DNA from: Alphaproteobacteria bacterium
GTDB taxonomy: Bacteria; Pseudomonadota; Gammaproteobacteria; JAGOUN01
Assembly: GCA_021151585.1 (NCBI GenBank)
Contig: JAGKWX010000003.1
Coordinates: 501-64,500 of the forward strand
Direction of reading: 5' to 3'
DNA length: 64,000 nt
Shown: one piece after another, positions 9,919-39,500 of the stretch
Layout of the letters: each line of letters begins with the position of its first letter
Numbering within the stretch: the stretch's first letter is position 1
Notes under the pieces: model-generated
Databases searched by the model: none
Seen by the model: only the letters and a program-made list of their open reading frames with translations
What the model was told of the DNA's origin: nothing
Translations under genes and position numbers: made by a program

Positions 9919-10892
9919 TATTTTTGCTCTGTAAATATAGCTTTTACGACGCTTTCTGCGTCAAAAGGTTGCATGTCATCAATGTGTTCACCTACGCCTA
10001 TAAAGCGTATAGGGATTTCTAGCGTTTTCGCAATAGACAACAATATACCACCTTTGGCAGTGCCATCAAGTTTTGTCATGACAATCCCGGTAACGCCCAT
10101 GGCTGCATGAAACTCTTTGGCTTGTTGTAAAGCATTCTGACCGATACTAGCGTCTAAAACTAATAGGACTTCATGGGGCGCTTGTGAATCAATTTTTTGA
10201 ATAACCCGCTTAATTTTACTTAGTTCGGCCATTAAGCCTTGCTGAGTATGTAAACGACCAGCGGTATCAGCGATAACTATATCGGTTTTTCGAGCTTTGG
10301 CTGATTGTAAAGCATCAAAAATGACTGATGCACTATCTGCGCCATGTTGCTGCGCAATTACGGGCGTGTCATTCCGATTTCCCCACGCGGTTAATTGTTC
10401 TATTGCTGCAGCACGGAATGTATCGCCGGCAGCTAGCATGACAGATTTTCCTTCGTCTTTAAATCGTTTTGCTAATTTTCCAATCGTGGTTGTTTTTCCT
10501 GCACCGTTAATTCCAATCATTAGAATAACAAAGGGCGAATCTGCTGCCGGAATGGTTAGTATTTCTTGTCGCGCCCGCAACATATCTATCATGATTTGCT
10601 GTAATTCATGTTGCAATTCTTCGCCAGTCGTTAGTTTTTTTTGTTTTGCGTTAGATTTTAAGGTGTCAAGAATTTCGGTTGTCGCTTCTACCCCAACATC
10701 CGCTAATAACAGATGTGTTTCTAATGTTTCCAATGTTTCTTCATCAAGCTTGATTGAACCTGAGAAGAGTTGGATCAAGCCACTGCTTAATTGGCGACGT
10801 GTTTTACTAAAGCCTTGCGATAAACGTTGTAGCCATGAAGTTTTTTCTGTTGTTTCTTCATTTTTTTGGTTTTTTTTGAGAAAATTTAGCAT
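9918..10892 (-). CDS. ftsY: Signal recognition particle receptor FtsY (short form, ~324 aa)
   Basis: NG domain with GINGAGKTTTIGKLA (G1), DTAGR, TKLDGTAKGG and LDASIGQNA motifs. Start taken at MLNFLKK (10890-10892); the listed ORF extends 17 codons further upstream. Confidence 0.9.
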   Translation of the reverse strand: MLNFLKKNQKNEETTEKTSWLQRLSQGFSKTRRQLSSGLIQLFSGSIKLDEETLETLETHLLLADVGVEATTEILDTLKSNAKQKKLTTGEELQHELQQIMIDMLRARQEILTIPAADSPFVILMIGINGAGKTTTIGKLAKRFKDEGKSVMLAAGDTFRAAAIEQLTAWGNRNDTPVIAQQHGADSASVIFDALQSAKARKTDIVIADTAGRLHTQQGLMAELSKIKRVIQKIDSQAPHEVLLVLDASIGQNALQQAKEFHAAMGVTGIVMTKLDGTAKGGILLSIAKTLEIPIRFIGVGEHIDDMQPFDAESVVKAIFTEQK

Positions 10893-22603: not shown

Positions 22604-23464
22604 ATGATTGTTCGTAAAGCTGTTTTTCCTGTTGCCGGTATGGGTACTCGTTTTTTGCCTGCGACCAAAGCTACCCCAAAAGAGATGTTACCCATTGTCG
22701 ATAAGCCCTTGATTCAATACGCTGTTGAAGAAGCGATTGCTGCCGGTATTGAAGAGCTGATTTTTGTAACCAGTAGCACAAAGCGGGCCATCGAAGATCA
22801 TTTTGATTCTAATTTTGAATTAGAGTGTAAATTAGAAGAACAAAAAAAATATGATTTATTGAAATTAGTGCAAGAAATTCTACCTGCGGGGGTGAATTGT
22901 TGTTATGTGCGACAAAAAAGCCCTTTAGGTCTAGGACATGCTGTGTTGTGCGCTAAAGAGGTTGTTGGTAATGAACCATTTGCGGTATTATTGGCTGATG
23001 ATCTTATTGATGCCGCCCCCGGATGCTTAACGCAAATGCTACAAGCTTATGCGAAATATAAATGTAGTGTTGTAGCAACGCAAACTATCCAGATTAAAGA
23101 TTCGGATAAATATGGTATGGTTGATGTTGTCAATAGTGCCTTAGCCGAGAAAAAAATTAATAGCATTATAGAAAAACCAAAGCCTGAATGCGCGCCATCT
23201 AATTTTGGTGTCGTCGGGCGCTATGTGTTAACGCCACGGATTTTTGATTTATTGGCAACGACTAACCAAGGGGCTGGTGGTGAAATACAATTAACAGATG
23301 CAATTTCTGATTTGTTAACTTATGAGAATGTATATGCCTACGCCTTTGATGGACGTCGCTATGATTGTGGTAGTAAGATAGGATACTTAGAAGCAACATT
23401 CAATTTTGCTTTGAAGCATCCAGAATTGGGTGCGCAAGTTAAACAGATGTTATCTGATTTGTAG
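22604..23464 (+). CDS. galU: UTP--glucose-1-phosphate uridylyltransferase
   Basis: [35 protein letters not shown], the canonical GalU N-terminus. Confidence 0.92.
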
Positions 23465-23472
23465 GGAGAACT

Positions 23473-25107
23473 ATGATGGAATCTATAGCGTTAACGCCCA
23501 CTTGGAAAGTGTTGCAACAACATAAGCTTGATATTGCGCGGGTTCATCTGCGAGATTTGTTTTTCAATGACCCCAAACGATTTGAACGTTTTTCCTTAAA
23601 ATACGATGGCATATTATTGGATTTTTCTAAAAACCGCATCACCCAAGAAACTCTTATGCTATTACTTCAATTAGCCGAAACAGCTGAGGTCAAGTTGCGC
23701 AGTTTTGAAATGTTTGCTGGTGATAAAATTAACATCACCGAACATCGCGCTGTTTTGCATACGGCATTACGCAATATTGATCACGCACCGGTTTTTCTTG
23801 ATCATCATAATATTATGCAAGATATTGAATCTGTTTGGCATCAGATGCGCAATATCAGCGAGAAAATTCGCCAACAACAATATTTTGGTTTTAGCGGTAA
23901 GCCAATCAATACCATTGTTAATTTAGGTATTGGTGGTTCTGATTTAGGCCCTAAAATGGTTAACTATGCGCTTGAACATGTAGCCACGGATAATTTAACT
24001 TGTCATTTTGTATCAAACGTTGATGCCACAGCGATATCACGCGTTTTAAAACGCTGCGATCCAGAGACGACGCTATTTATCATTTCGTCCAAGTCATTTT
24101 CTACTATTGAGACACTGACCAATGCAAACACGGCAAAACAATGGTTGTTAAAAAATTCGGATACAAAAGCTATTGCAACGCATTTTATTGCCATCACCGC
24201 GAAAGGTGATAGGGCTAAAGCTTGGGGTATTAATGAAGAGAATATTTTACCCTTATGGGATTGGGTGGGTGGACGGTATTCACTGTGGTCGGCTATTGGT
24301 TTGCCGATCGCCATTATGTGTGGCATGAAGAATTTTAAAGAATTATTGGCTGGTGCACATGCTATGGATGAGCATTTTAAAACAGCCGAATTAGCCCAAA
24401 ATCTTCCAGTATTATTGGCGCTAATCGGTGTTTGGAATCATAATTTTTTACATATGCCATCGAATGCGATTTTGCCTTATTGTGAAGCATTAAAATATTT
24501 TCCAGAACATTTGCAGCAAGTGGATATGGAAAGCAATGGTAAGTGCGTTGATGCTTTGGGGCGCGAAATTCTTGAGTATCAAACAGGACCGATTATTTGG
24601 GGTGCTCCAGGAACTAATGGCCAGCATTCATTTCATCAATTATTGCATCAAGGTACTGCAAAAGTGTGGTGTGATTTTATATTGCCAGTTAAGCCAATTG
24701 ATAATATCGGCGAACACCATGCATTATTAAGTGCTAATTGTTTTGCGCAAAGCCAAGCATTGATGCAAGGCAAATCACTGGCAGAGGCCTATGAAGAATT
24801 ACTCGCGCAAGGCGTTGAGCATGATGTGGCTGTGGTCTTGGCAGAACATAAAATGAGCTCTGGTAATAAGCCGAGTAGTACAATTCTATTTCCGCAACTA
24901 ACCCCTTACTATTTAGGCGCCCTGATCGCTTTGTATGAGCATAAAATTTTTACGCAAGGTGTTATTTGGCAGGTAAATTCCTTTGATCAATGGGGGGTCG
25001 AGTTAGGTAAGCAACTGGCGGATCATTTGTTGCCAGCGGTTGCTGGGCAAAACATCGACGGCTTGGATGCGTCCACGCAGGGTTTGCTTGAGGCAAGCCG
25101 GATATAG
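23473..25107 (+). CDS. pgi: Glucose-6-phosphate isomerase
   Basis: GIGGSDLGP, GGRYSLWSAIGLPIA, and conserved C-terminal WGVELGK. Confidence 0.92.
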   Translation: MMESIALTPTWKVLQQHKLDIARVHLRDLFFNDPKRFERFSLKYDGILLDFSKNRITQETLMLLLQLAETAEVKLRSFEMFAGDKINITEHRAVLHTALRNIDHAPVFLDHHNIMQDIESVWHQMRNISEKIRQQQYFGFSGKPINTIVNLGIGGSDLGPKMVNYALEHVATDNLTCHFVSNVDATAISRVLKRCDPETTLFIISSKSFSTIETLTNANTAKQWLLKNSDTKAIATHFIAITAKGDRAKAWGINEENILPLWDWVGGRYSLWSAIGLPIAIMCGMKNFKELLAGAHAMDEHFKTAELAQNLPVLLALIGVWNHNFLHMPSNAILPYCEALKYFPEHLQQVDMESNGKCVDALGREILEYQTGPIIWGAPGTNGQHSFHQLLHQGTAKVWCDFILPVKPIDNIGEHHALLSANCFAQSQALMQGKSLAEAYEELLAQGVEHDVAVVLAEHKMSSGNKPSSTILFPQLTPYYLGALIALYEHKIFTQGVIWQVNSFDQWGVELGKQLADHLLPAVAGQNIDGLDASTQGLLEASRI

Positions 25108-25706: not shown

Positions 25707-27251
25707 TTGATCTATAGGAAATCAGGCATGCTCAATACTAAGTTAACTTATCGTATAAGTTGTACGGTTATATTTTCATTTTTTATATGGCAAATACTGA
25801 AAAGTGGCTGGTTAAGTGATGATGCTCAAATCACTCTCCGATCGGTGATGAATTTTTTGAGCGGTTTTGGACCAAATTTCAATTGTGATGAACGTGTGCA
25901 AGCGTTCACTCACCCTTTGTGGTTTATGTGCTTAGCCTGTATGACTTTCATTGTTCGAAATGCTTATTACGCTACTTTTGCGCTCTCAATAAGTCTATCT
26001 AGTTTGGCGCTGTACTTATTTTTAACTAAAATTTCACCTTATGCCAAATCGGTAATTCTTGCCTCGTTATGCTTGGTTTTTTCTAAGGCTTACCTGGACT
26101 ATTCTACGTCTGGTCTTGAAAATCCACTATCTCATATTTTGCTGCTTGTTTTAGTATTGTTGGCGGAAAAGATAACAGAAAACAATCTTTCATCGCGCAA
26201 AAATCTTAGTGGTTATTTTTTATGCTGCGCATTTTTATATCTCAATCGACCTGATTTATCATTACTCATTCTTCCCTTGACTTTATGGGTATGTAAAAGA
26301 AATTTAGCTCAATTTGGTGCGCTTGTATCGTCTCTGTGTATTGGCGCTATTCCTGCCTTAATATGGACTGGCTTTTCACTTTATTATTACGGGTTTCCTT
26401 TTCCTAATACGGCTTATGCTAAATTAGGAATTACTGTCCCAATAGGGTGGCGTATTCATCATGGCGTATATTATTTATTAAACTCATTGAAGATGGATCC
26501 TCTTACTTTAATCACTATTGCTGTGGGTGTGGTTGCTAGTGTTTTTTCTTCAGCGTTGAATCGGAAAATAGCATGGGGCATTGTGCTTTATTTGGCCTAT
26601 ACCGTGTCTATTGGTGGCGATTTTATGTCTGGTCGTTTTTTAACCGAAACTTTATTGGCTGCTGCTATTATTATTGCTCGTTGCCGCTGGAGCAAAAAAT
26701 ATTTGTGGTTGTTTGCTATATCAATTACTTGTATAACTGTGGGGGAAATTATACACAATGCTTCGGTTGATCGCTCTCATTTGCAACTTAGGTTTGACCA
26801 TGGTATCGCCGATGAAAGACTATATTATGATAGTAAGTTCCAAGTGACTTCTTATAAAATGGCAGAATTATTTGCACTTAACCAATGGAAAACAAAAAAT
26901 CAAGGCGTGAAGATTATCGAATGCGGTATTTTAGGGTATCAAAGTATTAGCGCCGGGCCGGGCATGCATTTTAGCGATCAATGTGCACTAGCTGATCCAC
27001 TGTTGGCGCGCATACCTTCTCAAGGCAATGAGCACGATTGGCGTATCGGGCATATTTTACATAACATACCTGCAGGATATTATGAAAGCTTACAACAAAA
27101 TCAAAATATGCTGATCGACCCACAATTACATGAATATTATGATAAGATAAGGCTTATTACTCGCAGCCCGCTAAATTCCCGAGGCCGCTTGCATGCTATT
27201 ATTGAGCTTAACTTGCATAAAAGAGCACGCATTTCGTCTGAGTATAAATAA
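25707..27251 (+). CDS. Polytopic membrane glycosyltransferase, GT-C fold (ArnT/PMT-like), 514 aa
   Basis: About 10 TM helices with a DD motif in the first extracytoplasmic loop (GWLSDDAQI), plus a ~160-aa soluble C-terminal domain. Located at the head of the waaF-waaC-waaG/P LPS core cluster. Family assignment is tentative. Confidence 0.45.
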   Translation: MIYRKSGMLNTKLTYRISCTVIFSFFIWQILKSGWLSDDAQITLRSVMNFLSGFGPNFNCDERVQAFTHPLWFMCLACMTFIVRNAYYATFALSISLSSLALYLFLTKISPYAKSVILASLCLVFSKAYLDYSTSGLENPLSHILLLVLVLLAEKITENNLSSRKNLSGYFLCCAFLYLNRPDLSLLILPLTLWVCKRNLAQFGALVSSLCIGAIPALIWTGFSLYYYGFPFPNTAYAKLGITVPIGWRIHHGVYYLLNSLKMDPLTLITIAVGVVASVFSSALNRKIAWGIVLYLAYTVSIGGDFMSGRFLTETLLAAAIIIARCRWSKKYLWLFAISITCITVGEIIHNASVDRSHLQLRFDHGIADERLYYDSKFQVTSYKMAELFALNQWKTKNQGVKIIECGILGYQSISAGPGMHFSDQCALADPLLARIPSQGNEHDWRIGHILHNIPAGYYESLQQNQNMLIDPQLHEYYDKIRLITRSPLNSRGRLHAIIELNLHKRARISSEYK

Positions 27252-27280: not shown

Positions 27281-28312
27281 ATGACTACCAAGTATCTTAT
27301 TATAGGCCCTTCGTGGATTGGCGATATGATTATGGCCAACGCCTTGTTGCGATGTTTGAAAGCGCAAGATTCTCGTTGTGTGATTGATGTCTTAGCGCCG
27401 GAGTGGAGTCACCCTGTGCTTGCGCGTATGCCTGAAGTCCGTAGAGCACTTGTGATGCCCGTGAAGCATGGCATCTTTGGCTGGCGTATGCGTTATAAGA
27501 TTGGAATATCATTGCGCGATGAGCACTATGATCATGCAATTATATTGCCGAATTCATGGAAGTCAGCACTGATCCCCTTGTTTGCTTGTATCAAAAAACG
27601 TACTGGTTGGCGAGGTGAGTGGCGTTATGGCTTGTTAAACGATGTGCGTGTGTTGGATAAGAAAAAATTTCCATTGATGGTGGATAGATATGTAGAATTA
27701 GGGAGAATTATCGGAGCCGGCGACACTCATGCTTGTCCACCAAATGTTTATCCTCATTTACTAGTTGACCCAAATCAGCGTGACATTGCCCTAAAAAAAT
27801 ATCATTTTTCTCAAGACAAACCACTGTTGATTCTGTGTCCAGGCGCACAATATGGTAATTCAAAACGCTGGCCAGAAGAAAATTTTGCCAAAGTCGCACG
27901 ACATTTTTTAGATCAGGGTTGGCAAGTTGCTGTATTAGGTGGGAATGCCGAGGCTAATTTAGCTAATCAAATAATTGCAGCACAAGGTTTGGTTGCGTCT
28001 GATCATCAGATAGTCGATTTAACGATGACAACGCTAGCCGAAGCGATAGATATTATGTCCCTAGCGCGCGTGGTTGTCAGCAATGACTCTGGTTTGATGC
28101 ATATCGCTTGTGCTTTAACTAGGTCAATTGTTGCAATTTATGGCTCAAGTTCACCGGATTTCACACCTCCACTCAGCGATAAGGCAGTGATATTATCGAA
28201 ATCCTTGCCGTGTAAGCCATGTTTCAAGCGCGAATGTCCTTTAGGGCATATGTTATGTTTAAAAAATATTACGCCAGAGGAAGTTATCGGTGCAATCAAG
28301 ACTTTGCTATGA
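27281..28312 (+). CDS. waaF: ADP-heptose--LPS heptosyltransferase II
   Basis: YLIIGPSWIGDMIMANALLRCLKA...LPNSWKSALIPLFA..RTGWRGEWRYGLLNDVRVLDK is near-collinear with E. coli WaaF/RfaF. Confidence 0.92.
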   Translation: MTTKYLIIGPSWIGDMIMANALLRCLKAQDSRCVIDVLAPEWSHPVLARMPEVRRALVMPVKHGIFGWRMRYKIGISLRDEHYDHAIILPNSWKSALIPLFACIKKRTGWRGEWRYGLLNDVRVLDKKKFPLMVDRYVELGRIIGAGDTHACPPNVYPHLLVDPNQRDIALKKYHFSQDKPLLILCPGAQYGNSKRWPEENFAKVARHFLDQGWQVAVLGGNAEANLANQIIAAQGLVASDHQIVDLTMTTLAEAIDIMSLARVVVSNDSGLMHIACALTRSIVAIYGSSSPDFTPPLSDKAVILSKSLPCKPCFKRECPLGHMLCLKNITPEEVIGAIKTLL

Positions 28313-29348
28313 AGGAGGTAAAAAAATTCGTATTCTGCTTGTAAAAACATCATCGCTAGGCGATATAATTCATACGCTACCTGCGTTAACAGATGCCATG
28401 CGCGCAATTCCAGGGATTATTTTTGATTGGGTGATTGAAGAACGTTTTCAAGCCATTCCAGCATGGCACCCTGCGGTGGGACGAGTCATCCCTATTGCCT
28501 TGCGGCGTTGGAAGAAAAAGAAAAATTTTTTGACCATTTTTTCTTCTATAAAAGCATTTAAAAAAATAGTGAATCAACAATCTTATGATTTGGTCATTGA
28601 TGCACAAGGATTAGTAAAGTCTGCCCTAATAACATACTTGGTCAAGGCTCCCAGCGCGGGATATTCTAAAAACAGTATACGAGAAAAGTTAGCGAGTATT
28701 TTTTATGACGAAAGATACGAGGTGGCCAAAAAACAGCATGCAATCACTCGTATTCGACATTTATTTAGTCAGGCATTATATTATCCTTTGTCAGATGGCG
28801 TTATTGATTATGGCTTGACAGTGTCAGATTGCGAAGACAACTCGCAATCGTCGGCGTATGTTTTATTTTTTCACGGCACAACATGGGCTAATAAACATTG
28901 GCCAGAAAATTATTGGAAGCGCTTATTGCAGTTGCTGAATCAGCGTCAGTTTGCAGTTAAGTTAGCTTGGGGTAATCACGAGGAGTATCAGCGTAGTTTA
29001 CGTATTGCTGAATATGGCGAGGCAGATATTTTGCCTGAATTAAGCATAGAAGGGATGATGCCAGTCATTGCATCGGCGGCCGCGGTTGTTGCTGTAGATA
29101 CAGGTTTATGTCATTTGGCCGCGGCATTAAATGTTCCAACCATCGCTTTATTTGGACCGACAGATCCCTTGAAAACAGGTGTATTGGGAGATAGGCATGT
29201 GAATCTCGCGACAAATTTCACTTGCGCGCCATGTTTAAAACGACAGTGCACATATACAGAAAAAACAGATGAGTGGCCAGCATGTATGATGACCTTGCCG
29301 CCTCAGTTTGTGATTAAGAAGATGATAGAGATGAATATAACTCATTAA
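28290..29348 (+). CDS. waaC: ADP-heptose--LPS heptosyltransferase I
   Basis: IRILLVKTSSLGDIIHTLPALTDAMRAIPGIIFDWVIEERFQAIPAWHPAVGRVIPIALRRW aligns with E. coli WaaC (MRVLIVKTSSMGDVLHTLPALTDA...). The ATG at 28290 overlaps the waaF 3' end; an ATT start after the GGAGG RBS is an alternative. Confidence 0.88.
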   Translation: MQSRLCYEGGKKIRILLVKTSSLGDIIHTLPALTDAMRAIPGIIFDWVIEERFQAIPAWHPAVGRVIPIALRRWKKKKNFLTIFSSIKAFKKIVNQQSYDLVIDAQGLVKSALITYLVKAPSAGYSKNSIREKLASIFYDERYEVAKKQHAITRIRHLFSQALYYPLSDGVIDYGLTVSDCEDNSQSSAYVLFFHGTTWANKHWPENYWKRLLQLLNQRQFAVKLAWGNHEEYQRSLRIAEYGEADILPELSIEGMMPVIASAAAVVAVDTGLCHLAAALNVPTIALFGPTDPLKTGVLGDRHVNLATNFTCAPCLKRQCTYTEKTDEWPACMMTLPPQFVIKKMIEMNITH

Positions 29349-29360
29349 TTAAGGCATGAT

Positions 29361-31286
29361 ATGAAATTGGCATTTTGTATTTTTAAATATTTTCCATATG
29401 GTGGTTTGCAGCGTGATATGTATCGTGCAGCAGAAGTTGCTATAGCGCGTGGCCATTCGGTAGATATCTATACGATGGACTGGGAAGGGTTGTACATCCC
29501 TAATGCAAATATTAATATAATTAAAGTTCATTGCTGGACGAACCATGGCCGTGCTATTTCATTTATAACCAAATTAAAAAAAATACTTAATAATCGTGCC
29601 TATGATCGTGTTATTGGATTTAACAAAATTCCAGGCTTAGATATTTATTTTACTGGAGAGAATTGTTTTGCAAAGCATGTAGAAAGAAAAAGATTGCCAT
29701 TGATACATTATTTTCCTCGATATTTCTTTTTTTCATTGTTGGAGAAAAAGCTATTTGATGAGAAAAGCGAGTCAGAAATATTGTTGATATCGCCACGAGA
29801 AAAAAAAGTTTATCAAAAATTCTACCATACACAAGATGCGCGTTTTCACTTGCTTTTTCCAGGGATAGAGAAGCCTAGTTGCGACAATCAGGCGGCGATA
29901 AACATGCGCAACAGCATGCGAAAATTACATAATATTAATGAAAATAAAGTTTGGCTGTTGTTTGTTGCTTCTGATTATGCTTTAAAAGGATTGTGGCGAA
30001 TTTTGGAACTTATTCGATCTCTTGATAAAACCCATGCTGATCAAATAATTCTTTCTGTCGTTGGCCATGATAGCGCTTGCGCATATCAATCTTTTTTGAG
30101 TCGAAATAACATAAAAACACGAGTGGATTTCTTGGGAGCATCTGATGAGGTGTATGCCCTAATGGCTGGGGCAGATTTGTTAATGCATCCTGCAAAAGTA
30201 GAATTGGCTGGCAAGGTAATCTTAGAAGCGCTTGTTAATCATTTGCCAGTATTAACGACAGAAATTTGTGGGTGCGCGCATTATGTTATCGAAAGCCATG
30301 GTGGCGTTGTTTTACCTGAGCCATTTTCTCAGCAAGTATTTATGCACGCTTTTCTTCAGATTATGACGCCAGGTTATTTGCAAGGATATAGAAAAAATCT
30401 TAGTGAATATTCGATTAATGAAGGCGTTTATCGATCTCAGCAGCATATAGTTGACTGTATTGAGAATATTGATGTGCATTGTGTTCGAGAATTTTATTTA
30501 GATAAATTTTTAATAAATTTTCTCCCGCAAGACAAGAAAAAATGCATAGCTTATGTATTTTCTTTGCAGGGCGAAATTTATCGACAGGTCGAGAAGAGAA
30601 AAACTATTTTAGTTGACATAGGTGGAAACAATTATTTTATCAAAATGCACTATGGTGTTGGTTGGGCTGAAATTATAAAAAACCTATTGGTTTTTAAGTC
30701 TGTCGCTTTAGGCGCTCAGCCAGAATATGCTGCTATTCGCGAGATGCAAAAGGCCGGCATTTTGGTTCCAAAAATTTCTGCTTATGCGACGGATGGAATA
30801 AATCCTGCCAAAATTAATTCATTTATTATGACTGAGCGTATTTATTATCAATATGATTTGGAAAAGCTGTGTCAAACTTGGCCGCAGCGGCCACCAAATT
30901 TTTTATTTAAGCGACGTTTAATTCATCGCGTGGCAGAGATTGCAAGGAAAATGCATGTGCAAGGCATGAATCATCGTGATTTTTACTTATGCCATTTATT
31001 GTTAAATCAAAAAAGTGAGCTTAATTTTGACTTATATTTAATTGATTTACATCGTGTTCAAATTCGAAAGAAAACACCGTTGCGCTGGATAGTGAAGGAT
31101 TTGGCAGGCTTATATTTTTCTGCCATGGATATTGGCTTGACCCATCATGATATTTATTATTTTTTAACCCAGTATTATCAGCAGCCCTTGAGATATGTTT
31201 TTAAGAAAAAACGCTTAGTTTGTTTCTGGGTTTATCTAAGAGCAAAAATGTTACATCGTCGACATAAAAATAGGCTATCTTTATGA
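29361..31286 (+). CDS. Bifunctional WaaG-like GT4 glycosyltransferase fused to a WaaP-like LPS core heptose kinase (641 aa)
   Basis: N-terminal ~370 aa: MKLAFCIFKYFPYGGLQRDMYRAA...GFNKIPGLDIYF...AGKVILEALVNHLPVLTT aligns with E. coli WaaG. C-terminal ~270 aa: LQGEIYRQVEKRKT...YFIKMHYGVGWAEIIKNLL...NHRDFYLCHLLL...IDLHRVQIRKKTPLRWIVKDLAGLYFSAMDIGLT aligns with E. coli WaaP. One continuous reading frame. Confidence 0.8.
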   Translation: MKLAFCIFKYFPYGGLQRDMYRAAEVAIARGHSVDIYTMDWEGLYIPNANINIIKVHCWTNHGRAISFITKLKKILNNRAYDRVIGFNKIPGLDIYFTGENCFAKHVERKRLPLIHYFPRYFFFSLLEKKLFDEKSESEILLISPREKKVYQKFYHTQDARFHLLFPGIEKPSCDNQAAINMRNSMRKLHNINENKVWLLFVASDYALKGLWRILELIRSLDKTHADQIILSVVGHDSACAYQSFLSRNNIKTRVDFLGASDEVYALMAGADLLMHPAKVELAGKVILEALVNHLPVLTTEICGCAHYVIESHGGVVLPEPFSQQVFMHAFLQIMTPGYLQGYRKNLSEYSINEGVYRSQQHIVDCIENIDVHCVREFYLDKFLINFLPQDKKKCIAYVFSLQGEIYRQVEKRKTILVDIGGNNYFIKMHYGVGWAEIIKNLLVFKSVALGAQPEYAAIREMQKAGILVPKISAYATDGINPAKINSFIMTERIYYQYDLEKLCQTWPQRPPNFLFKRRLIHRVAEIARKMHVQGMNHRDFYLCHLLLNQKSELNFDLYLIDLHRVQIRKKTPLRWIVKDLAGLYFSAMDIGLTHHDIYYFLTQYYQQPLRYVFKKKRLVCFWVYLRAKMLHRRHKNRLSL

Positions 31287-31985
31287 TAAGCCACGCACAA
31301 TGTCCGTGTTGGCAGTGGTAATCGCTTGGCCTAAACTCGTGTATATATCTTGTTGAGGCATATTGTTGTCAAACGTTACTGCAATAATTCGAGTTTGGTA
31401 GCGCTCCCAGCGAGCGGTATTGCAAAGTAATAGAAGTTGTGTGTCTGTTAGATTATTCATAGAAGAGCGTGGATTAATAAGTTCTGGATTAAGAAGATCG
31501 TTACGCCCAAAATATTGTAAATCTAGAATCACAGCCTGGTTATTGGTCATTGGCTGTGAATTATTTGGCATTGCATCGGGAGATAAGATCTGCGTACTAT
31601 TACCAAACTCTGAATCTAAAAGTTCTGTTGCATCATTTTGGCTGACTCTGCCCACGCGGAATAAATTAGCTCTTAACACAAGATTAGCTTTGTCGATATT
31701 ATCGACCACTGTGAACGATTTTTCTTCCAGGCTCTTAGATAGCCAAGTCTGAAGATCAAAATCGTAAACGCCAGCATCATTTTTAATAGTGATGAAAGCG
31801 GTGCGTTCTTCTTTGGGGATAGGTGTTAAATATACATATGAGCTCGCTCTCGTTTTAACTTTTGCTACTGGTTGTGTTACCTTAGAGTCCTGTGATGGCT
31901 GTGCTTTGGCTGGCATGTGACAGGCGGTTAATAAATTCAGACCGAATAAAAAAACAAGACCGCATATAGAATATTTTTTTAACAT
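31281..31985 (-). CDS. TraT-like (complement-resistance/surface-exclusion family) lipoprotein, divergent, 234 aa
   Basis: Lipobox LLTAC. Mature region VKTRASSYVYLTPIPKEERTAFITIKNDAG...DLQTWLSKSLEEKSFTVVDNIDKANLVLRANLF parallels F-plasmid TraT ([30 protein letters not shown]...[33 protein letters not shown]). The Gly-rich central segment of TraT is absent. Confidence 0.4.
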   Translation of the reverse strand: MLKKYSICGLVFLFGLNLLTACHMPAKAQPSQDSKVTQPVAKVKTRASSYVYLTPIPKEERTAFITIKNDAGVYDFDLQTWLSKSLEEKSFTVVDNIDKANLVLRANLFRVGRVSQNDATELLDSEFGNSTQILSPDAMPNNSQPMTNNQAVILDLQYFGRNDLLNPELINPRSSMNNLTDTQLLLLCNTARWERYQTRIIAVTFDNNMPQQDIYTSLGQAITTANTDIVRGLS

Positions 31986-36587: not shown

Positions 36588-39500
36588 ATGCAGACCAGGC
36601 AAATCCCTTCCGTTATGGCAAGACTAAATGACACGAGTCCCCATAGAGCAACTCCAGCAATCATAGCTGAGAATTATGATAGTCGAGTTTATGGTAAACG
36701 CCAACGTTATGCGATGCCATCAGCATTGACTAGTGTAGATGGCGTGGATAGAACACAGGTTTTTCAGAATTTTACTTATGAAGATTTTACACGATTAAAA
36801 GATTTGGTTAGTACAGCGACATGTCCATTAGACCGAGCGTTGATTGATAAAATCAACTCATTAGATAAGTCAACTTATGCGCAAGCTGAATTTGATTACA
36901 ACACCGCGCGTGGTTTGGAATCTTATCTTGCATCACAAAATAATGATGTAGAAATGACTGATAAGCAAATTCAAGCAACTCAAGAAAACCCATTGGCACA
37001 TCCGAAGACCTTGGATACCAAGTTGGTGGTGAATAAAAATGCTGCGAGTTCTCAGGCACATGCTGTGTCAATTAGGCAGTTGATAAATAAATTAGCGACA
37101 GAATTTTATTCTACTACATTAATTGTTTTTTCTGATGAAGCAGCAGTCGCAGTAGATAGTGCTAAAGCCACTAATCTTTCACGTATGGTATTTTTTGATA
37201 AACAAGCGATTTATGCTCTTTGTTGTGTTTATGGTGTTGATAAAGCAGCATTGACTGATAAATTAAACAGTAAAGGTATGGCTGTAACCTTAGCTGAGAT
37301 ACGCGCTGCTCGAACGCAAGAGCCTGAAATTAAAGCATTGGCAATAGCAATAGAAACATTATTCGAGGCCGCTTATTTTGGTTCGGGTCGAGCATTTCAG
37401 TCGCTGATTGAAGCACATGAAGCAGGTATTTACGAATTTAGTGACGAAGAATTGTGCCAATTAGTAGAAGCGCAAATGGCATGGTATCGCATAGGATTAG
37501 CTGCACAAACACCACGTGATGGTAATCGCGTGCATTATGTCGCTTATCCTTTTGCGGATGACTTGAGTGCAGTGCAATGCTTGCCTGACTTAATCCTATC
37601 TCCTAAAACGTGGAAAGCAGTTCGTGTAAACCAAGCTGCATTCCAAAATTTACTTGCTAACGTTTATCATCAGCAAGGGATTAAAGCTTCTGCTTTAGTA
37701 GTTGCTAATGAGCATTTTGACGAAGAGGTAAAATTATCTAATGATGATTTGCGACAATTATTGCGAACGCTGGTTACTCTATATATTGCTGCAAAACAAT
37801 CAGGTTCTAGCGTAGAAGGCGATGATATGCAAATTTTACCAAGATTTCTACCAGAAAAACGCTATCCAAGATTGTGGGAGGCGTTAAGAGGGAAAGCGGA
37901 AGAAAGTTATCGCTTGCTCAATGATTTTTGGCCGAAATTAAGTCGAGAATTGCTGAATCAGCCGGTGGTAGCTGAACTAACTGCGCGTGGTCCGCGTAGT
38001 GAGGAAGAGCGAGCTGAGGCTGCTCATGCTGAGCTAACAATTGATGCATTGGTTTCCTCGGTACATTTAGCTGGTGAGATAGAAAAACAACCAGAGCATT
38101 TAATTAAACAGCTTCAAGAGCCGATAATGGCTATCGAATTGAGTGACACAAAACGACAGTTTGCTGCTCAGCGGATAGAGATTTTGGAAGCCATGGGTAA
38201 GTTACGTCATTATGCATTGTCTGAAAAATTAAGAACGCCTGGTCTCGATGAATCCATACAAGATGAGTTGGTGCTGGCAAAACAAAAGAATTCAGCGCAA
38301 ACGATGAGCGAAACAGAGTTAATGCAAAAAATCACAGAACAAGCAGTATTGGCGAGTGGTGGTATTTATGATATTCGAGAAGTGATTATCAAGAGGATCG
38401 CTAGTAACCAAGTAGCAGACAAAAGTGCACAAGAAAAACTTGATGAAGACAATAAGGCTTTGCAGAAACCACAACAAATATTGTTAAGACAAACGGATGA
38501 GGTAGTTAAAAAACTTCAAGAAGAAGATGAAAAAGATTTGAAAGATAGTAGTGTTGTTGAATATAAAGCAGAGAAATCGGGTTTTGCTAAGAGTAAAACA
38601 GCCAATCATGTTGAAAGAGAGTTTGAAGAAGCAAGTAATGCAGTAGAAGAACAAGCGAAATTGACAGCAGATAGAAATCGTCCTGCTTCTTTCTTATGGG
38701 GTAAATCAGATCAAGAGCTATTACAAGAAAAACAACAAAGGTTAGTAAAATGCGAAGCGCGTTTAAACACGTTACGCACTCAGCAAGCAGCGTATGTACA
38801 GCGTAAAGCTCAACGTGATAAAGATACCAAATTGGTTCAGCAATTACGGGACCAGGTGAATCAGCTTGTAACCCATGCTATTGAAGTTTTGAAAAATTTA
38901 AACATGATTAGAGCTGAACGATTGGATCAATTAGAGGCATTGAAGTTATTAAGCCAAGATATTCTAGAAGTGATTGAGAATAATCCAGTTGTTGAGTATA
39001 TGCGCGATTTTGTTGAAAAAGTTTCTGAGTTTATAATATCACAAATGAAAGAGGCTAATGCTCAAGCGGTGCGTGAAGCACGTTTGCAGGAGCTTGAAAA
39101 TAAAGAGCGAGCGTTAACTAAAGCATTGGTTGAGACTAACCCTGTAACCGAATTTATTCGTTTGGTGATGCTCGATTATGTGCAAACTTGGGTGGCGCGT
39201 AAAGGAAGGGGTGATTATTCTTATTGGAAAAACTTAATCGCACAAAGTTTACAAGAAGACATAACGGCGTATGAATATGGAGCTTTTGCGTTTAAACATC
39301 CGAATAAAAAGAACAAGGCGCGTGAAGCGTTGCCTTTATTTATAGTGGCAAATTCATCCGCTTATATAAAATTGTTAGTGATTTACATATTGAGTGTTTC
39401 TGCCGAAGATTTTTGGTTAAAAATACAAGATAAGCTCTTCGAAACGAATGGCCGGGTGGTGCCTAAAGAATCTGCATCATTGCTAAATGTTTTGTTAAGT

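Follow-up and report, generated by a model that had tools for sequence, protein, structure and literature searches.

The fused gene and its neighbourhood

Exactly one open reading frame, of 641 codons and beginning with ATG, occupies 29361..31286 of the forward strand in the window, the 64-kb stretch of DNA analysed here. Its start codon lies 12 nt downstream of the waaC stop codon, and the mass of the encoded protein can be estimated from its length at about 74 kDa. The features of the locus are as follows.

22604..25107, + strand: galU and pgi (UDP-glucose supply), listed as context only; TIGR01099, 379 bits; NF001211, 769 bits
27281..28312, + strand: waaF, heptosyltransferase II; TIGR02195, 427 bits, cutoff 134.6
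28290..29348, + strand: waaC, heptosyltransferase I, directly upstream of waaGP; TIGR02193, 334.5 bits, cutoff 185.3
29361..31286, + strand: complete waaG-waaP fusion, 641 aa plus stop, a single ORF; identical protein P0001 on an NCBI contig of 77,463 bp; AF2 model with mean pLDDT 93 and pTM 0.85
29361..30470, + strand: WaaG-like GT4 half (GT-B fold), residues 1-370; alignment with 2iv7 and P. aeruginosa WaaG 8b5s, Foldseek
30201..30227, + strand: EX7E motif, E281...E289 (ELAGKVILE), translation checked; both Glu invariant in 61 fused homologues
30471..30554, + strand: junction, residues 371-398 (DVHCVREFYLDKFLINFLPQDKKKCIAY), without stop or frameshift
30555..31283, + strand: WaaP heptose(I) kinase half, residues 399-641; NF011703, 6dfl, Foldseek
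30642..30644, + strand: K428, equivalent to the catalytic Lys K51 of P. aeruginosa WaaP (PaWaaP); 6dfl alignment, invariant in 61 sequences
30972..30980, + strand: HRD motif, H538-R539-D540, equivalent to PaWaaP H161-R162-D163; from the alignment, H and D invariant
31044..31052, + strand: DLH motif, D562-L563-H564, the Mg-binding 'DFG' equivalent, corresponding to PaWaaP D188-L189-H190; D and H invariant
31281..31985, - strand: TraT-like lipoprotein gene; PF05818, E=5.8e-16

The TIGR02193 match to waaC begins at residue 14, and the true start of this gene is probably slightly downstream of 28290. The TraT-like gene is convergent with waaGP and overlaps its end by 6 nt. It is the same neighbour in the two sister loci L082 and L083, both of which keep the fusion and have the order waaF-waaC-waaGP-traT-like-aroA; a break at the junction, which the initial annotation had proposed looking for in sister lineages, was therefore not seen there. 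In Pseudomonas the gene order is waaF-waaC-waaG-waaP, as in the window, but P. aeruginosa encodes WaaG and WaaP separately. Like E. coli waaG, the window gene lies beside other waa core genes. A tblastn search of the 64-kb window returned no second WaaG or WaaP paralogue, and no Rfam family matched the window at its gathering threshold. Around the locus, where the DNA is AT-rich, a promoter scan scored about 2 shuffle SDs above expectation and gave no interpretable site, and terminator-like sites fell below expectation. A PcnB search places the host as an uncultured gammaproteobacterium, its best agreement being with MAG proteins (70-80% identity), against about 56% at most for cultured taxa.

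The description of WaaG and WaaP as one uninterrupted 641-aa polypeptide holds: the ORF is single, and no stop codon or frame break is present in the junction DNA (30400-30640). The two halves are joined by the end of the WaaG-equivalent sequence, about five extra residues and the beginning of the WaaP-equivalent sequence. This junction is the least conserved segment of the protein, with 36-50% identity within the window clade, and its length between anchors ranges from 12 to 66 residues across fused proteins. It is nevertheless predicted to be ordered (AF2 pLDDT 88-97), and the pTM of 0.85, as indirect evidence, is consistent with a fixed arrangement of the two domains.

A WaaG-type half with an atypical sugar pocket and a WaaP kinase half

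The N-terminal half contains the two GT4 domains of Pfam, Glyco_transf_4 at residues 13-92 and Glycos_transf_1 at 184-351. When compared with PDB sequences by phmmer, residues 2-367 aligned with residues 2-368 of E. coli WaaG (2iv7; E=2.5e-74) with a single one-residue gap near residue 341, confirming the full-length match that had been claimed for residues ~1-370, and the half aligned with P. aeruginosa WaaG at E=2e-68. The AF2 model of this half superposes on 8b5s and 2iv7 with TM scores of 0.94-0.95 and an rmsd of 1.7-1.8 Å (Foldseek). E. coli WaaG (RfaG; 2iv7/2iw1) is the UDP-glucose:(heptosyl)LPS alpha-1,3-glucosyltransferase of family GT4; the query is collinear with it and has the same GT-B fold, but the E. 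coli enzyme is a free-standing protein of 374 aa whereas the query runs on into a kinase domain.

The core residues G15, R18, D19, K209, E281, G284 and E289 are all found in the query and, together with F97 and A283, are shared with E. coli WaaG; E281 and E289 serve in sugar and ribose binding, and the roles of the other core residues are likewise described in PMC10579960. Among 61 fused homologues (16 of the window clade and 45 others), six of these residues are invariant, R18 being the exception with 59 occurrences (15/16 and 44/45, respectively). Two further residues differ. R173, whose side chain hydrogen-bonds uracil and ribose, is present in 41 of the 45 other fused proteins but absent from the query, which has S173 preceded by K171 and P172; 11 of the 16 clade members carry R172 instead, which may substitute for R173 in those proteins. 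R261, which contacts the ligand through its backbone, is Ser in the query. Both arginines are replaced in most clade members.

At the five specificity positions the query has F97, L208, L282, A283 and K285. Two of these match the UDP-glucose set of E. coli (F97, R208, A282, A283, I285; PMC10579960), and R208, the key arginine for glucose specificity, is absent from all 16 clade members. None of the five residues of the P. aeruginosa set (Y97, T208, N282, T283, T285) is found in the query clade, so that the query, although collinear with the UDP-GalNAc-specific WaaG of that species (8b5q/8b5s/8b62/8b63), lacks its pocket; the same residues occur in 38-43 of the 45 other fused proteins at each position. 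Given L208, L282, K285, S173 and S261, the use of UDP-glucose by the window protein is not established, and no NCBIfam glycosyltransferase equivalog reached its cutoff for this half. The name 'LPS glucosyltransferase I' given in the initial annotation therefore stands as regards a WaaG-type GT4 enzyme but goes beyond the evidence as regards the donor, since the residues that set donor specificity fit the pattern of neither E. coli nor P. aeruginosa (PMC10579960); judged from these residues, a UDP-glucose donor is unproven. Because the sugar pocket is atypical, glycosyltransferase activity and its donor are less certain than the kinase activity.

The identification of the C-terminal half as WaaP is borne out by profile, sequence and fold. 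PF06293 (Kdo/WaaP) matches residues 401-605, and the RfaP equivalog NF011703 (cutoff 170) matches residues 393-637 with a score of 292.6 bits. Residues 399-632 match the LPS core heptose(I) kinase of P. aeruginosa (6dfl) with E=1.5e-63 to 1e-62 (phmmer, PDB), at 38% identity in the structural alignment, and the AF2 kinase half superposes on 6dfl_A with a TM score of 0.90 and an rmsd of 2.2 Å over 258 alignment columns (Foldseek), including both the eukaryotic-like kinase fold and the WaaP-specific C-terminal helical subdomain. By their scores, the domain matches of both halves are far beyond chance. On NCBIfam scores, assignment of the kinase half to KdkA (NF002475, 29.5 bits, cutoff 142) or to WaaY was ruled out.

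The HRDxYxCHxLL and IDLHR blocks are present as described, with HRD at 30972-30980 and the DLH of IDLHR at 31044-31052. Residues K51, E78, HRD, H168, DLH and D206 have been named as the catalytic or ligand residues of PaWaaP (PMC6147952); outside the two motifs their equivalents in the query are K428, E455, H545 and D580. These catalytic residues are invariant in the 61 fused sequences or nearly so, R539 and L563 each being found in 60. A kinase inactivated by substitution of the HRD aspartate, which had been raised as a concern, is not what we find: D540 is intact, and invariant in the 61 fused homologues. The glycine-loop residue G35 of PaWaaP is Lys in the query.

PaWaaP is a free protein of 268 aa that is insoluble without its partner acyl-ACP (PMC6147952), whereas the query is fused and has partly lost the corresponding basic patch. 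The ACP-contacting residues K140, R141, R221, R222, R226, R229 and R237 align with K517, R518, H595, H596, Y600, T603 and R611, three of the seven (K517, R518 and R611) being kept, in a patch that is known from PaWaaP only and may not be family-defining. R226 is replaced by Tyr in all 16 clade members. In contrast, fused proteins of other clades mostly keep both the P. aeruginosa-type sugar pocket and the ACP patch.

Distribution and origin of the fusion

The fusion is kept in the window clade, in which 15 independent sister proteins (638-647 aa, 55-68% identity) are also fused. A search of other genomes for WaaG-WaaP fusions, as had been suggested, found them in 55 or more species-representative genomes and in some 70 protein clusters. 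A single WaaG-WaaP ORF was present at 59 of the 84 loci checked (81 from a first pass, L082, L083 and the window). Database examples, from Arenicellales, Cellvibrionaceae, Poriferihabitaceae and Coxiellaceae MAGs, have the same two domains in the same order with 38-43% identity over 97-100% of the length; one of 621 aa (HSW68941.1) is annotated 'lipopolysaccharide core heptose(I) kinase RfaP'. In both halves pN/pS is ~0.26-0.43, that is, dN/dS is ~0.1-0.2, and on these ratios both the GT and the kinase half are under purifying selection of equal strength.

Fused and split forms interleave on NJ trees, which require 7-9 parsimony changes, and one clade, of about 40 taxa, contains only fused forms. 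At the split loci, waaG and waaP abut, overlap (ATGA) or share a reading frame that a single stop codon interrupts; seven split loci are one in-frame stop codon away from fusion, and others a short overlap away. As the split genes abut or overlap, a single mutation can fuse them. Judged from the sequences, the fusion is not rare and has arisen repeatedly, and the other fused clades probably became fused independently of the window clade. Other fusions, GT4-WaaG and WaaP-kinase-kinase, occur at the equivalent locus elsewhere.

Our literature search found no published description of a WaaG-WaaP fusion. The 'bifunctional WaaP' of PMC9138534 was considered as a prior report and rejected, as the term there means sugar and tyrosine kinase activity, not a fusion.

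The LPS-heptose pathway itself offers a precedent for a pair of enzymes that some lineages fuse and others keep apart. HldE, heptose-7-phosphate kinase and heptose-1-phosphate adenylyltransferase, is one protein in E. coli and two, HldA and HldC, in other bacteria. The two systems differ, however, in that their folds and reactions are unrelated, the HldE steps are not strictly consecutive, and HldE acts on soluble sugar phosphates whereas the substrate of WaaG-WaaP is the lipid-linked core.

A model for the fused enzyme and its alternatives

We believe, with a probability of roughly 80%, that the gene is a genuine chromosomal gene encoding a bifunctional LPS inner-core enzyme with WaaG and WaaP halves. 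In our model, the upstream WaaC and WaaF would make the acceptor, Hep2-Kdo2-lipid A. The N-terminal WaaG orthologue would then transfer a hexose-type sugar from a UDP-sugar to heptose II, and the C-terminal WaaP orthologue, joined to it almost end to start, would subsequently use ATP to phosphorylate heptose I on the cytoplasmic side of the inner membrane. The fusion most likely originated when the waaG stop codon was lost or bypassed in an ancestor whose waaG and waaP abutted or overlapped, and would have been kept by selection in the window lineage. The benefit probably lies in a fixed 1:1 stoichiometry and in the co-localisation of two consecutive steps on one membrane-bound substrate; it is also possible that an aggregation-prone WaaP is stabilised by the WaaG domain, which is soluble and associates with membranes. 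In E. coli the product of WaaG is the substrate of WaaP, as stated in a passage of PMC4942254 that cites Yethon 2000/2001, and since this is so, it may reasonably be inferred that the fused protein couples the two reactions physically or kinetically.

The alternative that we take most seriously, and which is quite possible without being our preferred reading, is that the protein is bifunctional but that the covalent link confers no kinetic or stability benefit, being a by-product of stop loss that drifts between lineages; the parent genes are then seen as tightly packed and probably translationally coupled. The interleaving of fused and split forms, the single stop codon or short overlap that separates the split loci from fusion, the poorly conserved junction of variable length and the other kinds of fusion at the same locus are all in keeping with such drift, and the repeated switching between forms suggests that the fusion may be nearly neutral rather than strongly advantageous. 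However, large fused clades are stable across deep divergence, with identities as low as 55% in the window clade and no exception in the clade of about 40 taxa, the junction is ordered in an AF2 model of high pTM, and the loss of the ACP patch specifically in the window clade hints at co-adaptation of the halves. It is unlikely that the kinase alone is active and that the WaaG-like half has degenerated into a scaffold or membrane anchor for WaaP. Such decay could explain the replacement of R173 and R261, the residues at positions 97, 208, 282, 283 and 285, which as a set resemble neither characterised WaaG, and the failure to reach an NCBIfam glycosyltransferase cutoff, but it is difficult to reconcile with six invariant core residues and a nearly invariant R18, with purifying selection as strong as that on the kinase half, with superposition on WaaG at 1.7-1.8 Å, with the lack of another WaaG paralogue in the 64-kb window, and with an R172 in 11 of 16 clade members that may replace R173.

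Both explanations that deny a single fused product are less probable still. Release of WaaP from the one ORF, by an internal start or by proteolysis near the junction, appears very improbable: its sole support is an in-frame GTG at the junction (V372, 30474-30476, 'gat gtg cat'), which is not conserved among the sister sequences; comparison of these revealed no internal start that is conserved, the stretch between residues 368 and 429 lacks an in-frame ATG, and the junction is predicted to be ordered. We consider it extremely unlikely that a missing stop codon or an indel has falsely joined two genes. Although the source is a 77-kb draft contig with an A6 run at the junction, homology is in frame on both sides of it, and the same continuous ORF is found in the 15 independently assembled sister proteins and at 58 other loci, several of them on complete chromosomes.

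A bolder version of the model, which we regard as rather doubtful, is that the WaaG domain has taken over the role of acyl-ACP for WaaP and that the GT half has acquired a third donor specificity. The attached WaaG domain would then keep the kinase soluble and placed at the membrane, and its presence in place of acyl-ACP would account for the decay of the ACP-binding arginine patch (R226 to Tyr, 16/16). If this were true, natural fusions would give structural and inhibitor studies a practical source of soluble WaaP, and a specificity for neither UDP-Glc nor UDP-GalNAc would imply that the first outer-core sugar of this lineage is one not seen before.

Returning to the bifunctional enzyme that we favour, its impact is limited, as neighbouring genes for consecutive steps commonly fuse in evolution, the WaaG-WaaP fusion is widespread in databases and there is no hint of new chemistry. 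The window fusion is a modest, undescribed variant, not a rarity. WaaP is nevertheless essential in P. aeruginosa and a target for antibiotic adjuvants, and WaaG is also a target; the fused protein is a ready-made construct with which substrate hand-over could be tested, and the kinase may be more tractable in this form. As a natural fusion, it provides independent 'Rosetta-stone' evidence that WaaG and WaaP act together on one lipid-linked intermediate.

A single reading frame for WaaG and WaaP

The initial annotation described a WaaG glycosyltransferase and a WaaP heptose kinase encoded as one polypeptide with neither stop nor frameshift between them. Based on a single ORF found exactly at 29361..31286 (+), matches to Pfam and NCBI models, and alignments to solved WaaG and WaaP structures, this observation is confirmed in full. 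The ATG of the fused gene, waaGP, lies 12 nt past the stop of the upstream gene, and the junction DNA (30400-30640) is an open frame throughout, without a stop or frame change.

Features of waaGP and its 641-aa product (the query)
29361..31286, + strand: waaG-waaP fusion ORF, 641 codons plus stop, ATG start
Residues 13-92: Glyco_transf_4 (Pfam)
Residues 184-351: Glycos_transf_1 (Pfam)
Residues 401-605: LPS kinase domain, PF06293 (Pfam)

As had been proposed, the N-terminal half is a WaaG-type GT4 protein: residues 2-367 align with E. coli WaaG (2iv7; E=2.5e-74) with one 1-residue gap, and with P. aeruginosa WaaG (8b5s; E=2e-68). All seven residues named as key in PaWaaG/EcWaaG (G15, R18, D19, K209, E281, G284 and E289; PMC10579960) are present in the query and, except for R18 (59/61), invariant in the 61 fused homologues, which comprise the window's clade of 16 and 45 other fused proteins. 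The C-terminal half matches the NCBI curated RfaP/WaaP heptose(I) kinase equivalog over residues 393-637 (292.6 bits; cutoff 170), and residues 399-632 align with P. aeruginosa WaaP (6dfl; E=1e-62). The key PaWaaP residues K51, E78, H161-R162-D163, H168, D188-L189-H190 and D206 (PMC6147952) correspond in the 6dfl alignment, with coordinates checked, to K428, E455, H538-R539-D540, H545, D562-L563-H564 and D580, so that the HRD catalytic Asp is intact as claimed; these positions are invariant or nearly so in the 61 homologues. A Kdo-kinase identity was also considered and rejected, as that model gave only 29.5 bits (cutoff 142).

An AlphaFold2 model, with an input alignment of 61 sequences, has a mean pLDDT of 93 and a pTM of 0.85, with all segments at least 70 and the junction (residues 371-400) at 88-97. 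Its N-terminal half matches WaaG crystal structures (TM 0.94-0.95, 1.7-1.8 Å) and its C-terminal half the WaaP structure (TM 0.90, 2.2 Å); structure comparison found no PDB entry spanning both halves. The WaaG-equivalent part stops at about residue 370 and the WaaP-equivalent N-terminus resumes a few residues on, and by chain lengths and alignments the junction holds about 5 residues more than free WaaG plus WaaP, suggesting that the two are joined almost end to start. The kinase is unlikely to be translated separately, since the sister sequences do not keep the junction's in-frame GTG and no in-frame ATG was found from residue 368 to residue 429. In each half pN/pS is ~0.26-0.43 and dN/dS roughly 0.1-0.2 (Nei-Gojobori, two sister genes, dS near saturation), which points to purifying selection on both.

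The fusion is not an artefact. A protein identical to the query is encoded on a 77,463-bp NCBI contig, fifteen independently assembled proteins (638-647 aa, 55-68% identity) have the same architecture, and in the sister loci L082 and L083 the fusion is likewise one gene.

Host and gene neighbourhood

The window is ordinary chromosomal DNA (~40% GC) carrying gshA, groEL, rpoH, ftsY/ftsX, pyk, pgk, PBP4, parB, galU, pgi, aroA, pcnB, glnA, def-fmt-rsmB, ksgA, hemE and miaA. Because PcnB is 70-80% identical only to metagenomic Gammaproteobacteria and at most ~56% identical to cultured taxa, the host is placed in an uncultured gammaproteobacterial lineage. The 64-kb window has no further WaaG or WaaP paralogue.

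Neighbouring features
15329-19054 and 36588-41150, + strand: two very long ORFs of 1241 and 1520 aa
22604-25107, + strand: galU and pgi, ~600 bp upstream of the GT-C-like ORF and ~2.2 kb upstream of waaF
25707-27251, + strand: 514-aa hydrophobic (GT-C-like) protein, TTG start, directly upstream of waaF
31281-31985, - strand: TraT-like lipoprotein gene, convergent with waaGP; 6-nt overlap with the 3' end of waaGP

The window, L082 and L083 share the order waaF, waaC, waaGP, convergent TraT-like gene (9957-10652 in L082, 9918-10625 in L083), aroA; beyond aroA the window and L082 have pcnB, which in L083 lies on the opposite side of the waa cluster. TraT is normally a plasmid surface-exclusion and serum-resistance protein; the window's TraT-like gene is chromosomal. 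With galU and pgi in this position, UDP-glucose supply may be tied to core synthesis. The 514-aa protein has no Pfam match and a weak NCBIfam match, far under cutoff, to a GT-C-type terminal arabinofuranosyltransferase (E=1e-16); it may be a membrane enzyme that glycosyl-modifies LPS or lipid A. Pfam and NCBIfam searches of the 1241-aa and 1520-aa ORFs gave zero matches, and a comparable 1355-aa orphan lies upstream of the waa cluster in L082 (151-4218).

Donor pocket and acyl-ACP patch

At five pocket positions, residue changes turn PaWaaG from a UDP-GalNAc-specific into a UDP-glucose-specific enzyme (PMC10579960).

Residues at the specificity positions
Position: 97, 208, 282, 283, 285
Window's clade (16/16 members): F, L, L, A, K
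E. coli WaaG (UDP-glucose): F, R, A, A, I
P. aeruginosa WaaG (UDP-GalNAc): Y, T, N, T, T

Most other fused proteins, in contrast to the window's clade, hold the P. aeruginosa pattern (38-43 of 45 at each position). The query also has Ser at position 173, where R173 of WaaG contacts uracil and ribose. Since the pocket fits neither reference enzyme and R173 is replaced, the label 'glucosyltransferase I' is not justified for this half, despite the nearby galU.

PaWaaP requires acyl-ACP for solubility, binding it via seven basic residues (PMC6147952). Three of the seven are left in the query (K517, R518 and R611), and R226 is Tyr in 16/16 of the window's clade, whereas R222 and R226 are mostly retained in other fused proteins. 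We speculate that in this clade the fused WaaG domain may act as a stabilising partner in place of ACP.

Recurrence and meaning of the fusion

The WaaG-WaaP fusion is not unusual, and many examples were found in other genomes. In a protein search, proteins of 600-680 aa with both PF00534 and PF06293 fell into ~70 distinct clusters (90% identity), most 38-43% identical to the query. An alignment of fused proteins, scanned against one genome for each GTDB species, gave at least 600 candidate stretches; among the best 80 plus L001, a single ORF covers both halves in 56/81, in 22 the two genes are adjacent but separate, and the other 3 are truncated or offer no usable waaP match. With L082, L083 and the window added, 59/84 are fused. 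Hosts of fused loci include Arenicellales, Poriferihabitaceae, Cellvibrionaceae, Acidiferrobacteraceae, a Thioglobus MAG and a Coxiellaceae MAG, and some of the genomes are complete chromosomes.

In split loci waaG and waaP abut or overlap (ATGA, or ~10-20 nt), and in L005, L022, L036, L041, L047, L052 and L058 they share a frame with one stop codon plus 0-10 nt between; one substitution or 1-nt indel would be enough to fuse such genes. On neighbour-joining trees, whether built from the WaaG part, the WaaP part or a concatenation of the two, fused loci are intermingled with split ones, with 7-9 parsimony changes (an approximate count, the trees being without support values) and at least four fused groups, the window's clade forming a separate one. 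A single origin is thus unlikely. Full-text literature searches turned up no description of the fusion, and databases label the proteins plain RfaP or WaaG. The architecture is widespread, apparently repeatedly evolved and visible in databases, and both component enzymes are well known.

Elsewhere, this locus has other fusions. Proteins of 750-786 aa (P0023-P0120) and loci L022 (4768-7113), L076 and L080, from OM182, Azotimanducaceae and other Gammaproteobacteria, carry an extra GT4 glycosyltransferase N-terminal to WaaG; the waaP that follows is separate: in L022 it stays in frame after one stop, and in L076 and L080 it overlaps in another frame. The 768-aa ORF at 7156-9459 of L060 combines WaaP, APH-like and protein-kinase-like domains, resembling fused Pseudomonas waaP-wapP-wapQ kinase genes. 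In L001, from a 5.18-Mb genome with fused homologue P0080, a second Kdo/WaaP-family kinase gene (10043-10840; weak match) directly follows the fusion; the window has none of this type.

In E. coli, the inner core to which the first glucose has been added serves as the WaaP substrate, and core phosphorylation is lost in waaG mutants (PMC4942254, citing Yethon 2000/2001), so WaaG and WaaP perform successive steps on one lipid-anchored intermediate. A bifunctional enzyme is the best-supported reading, and the interpretation first offered is essentially right. Hep2-Kdo2-lipid A would be built by WaaC and WaaF, encoded immediately upstream; the GT4 domain would then put the first outer-core hexose onto HepII, after which the kinase domain would phosphorylate HepI. 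Fusion would thereby provide equal amounts and co-localisation of both activities. Because loci switch often between the fused and split states, the fusion may be nearly neutral. Although a bifunctional WaaG-WaaP enzyme would not surprise a specialist, it provides useful Rosetta-stone evidence for cooperation between WaaG and WaaP, and the fused protein is perhaps a tractable form of WaaP.
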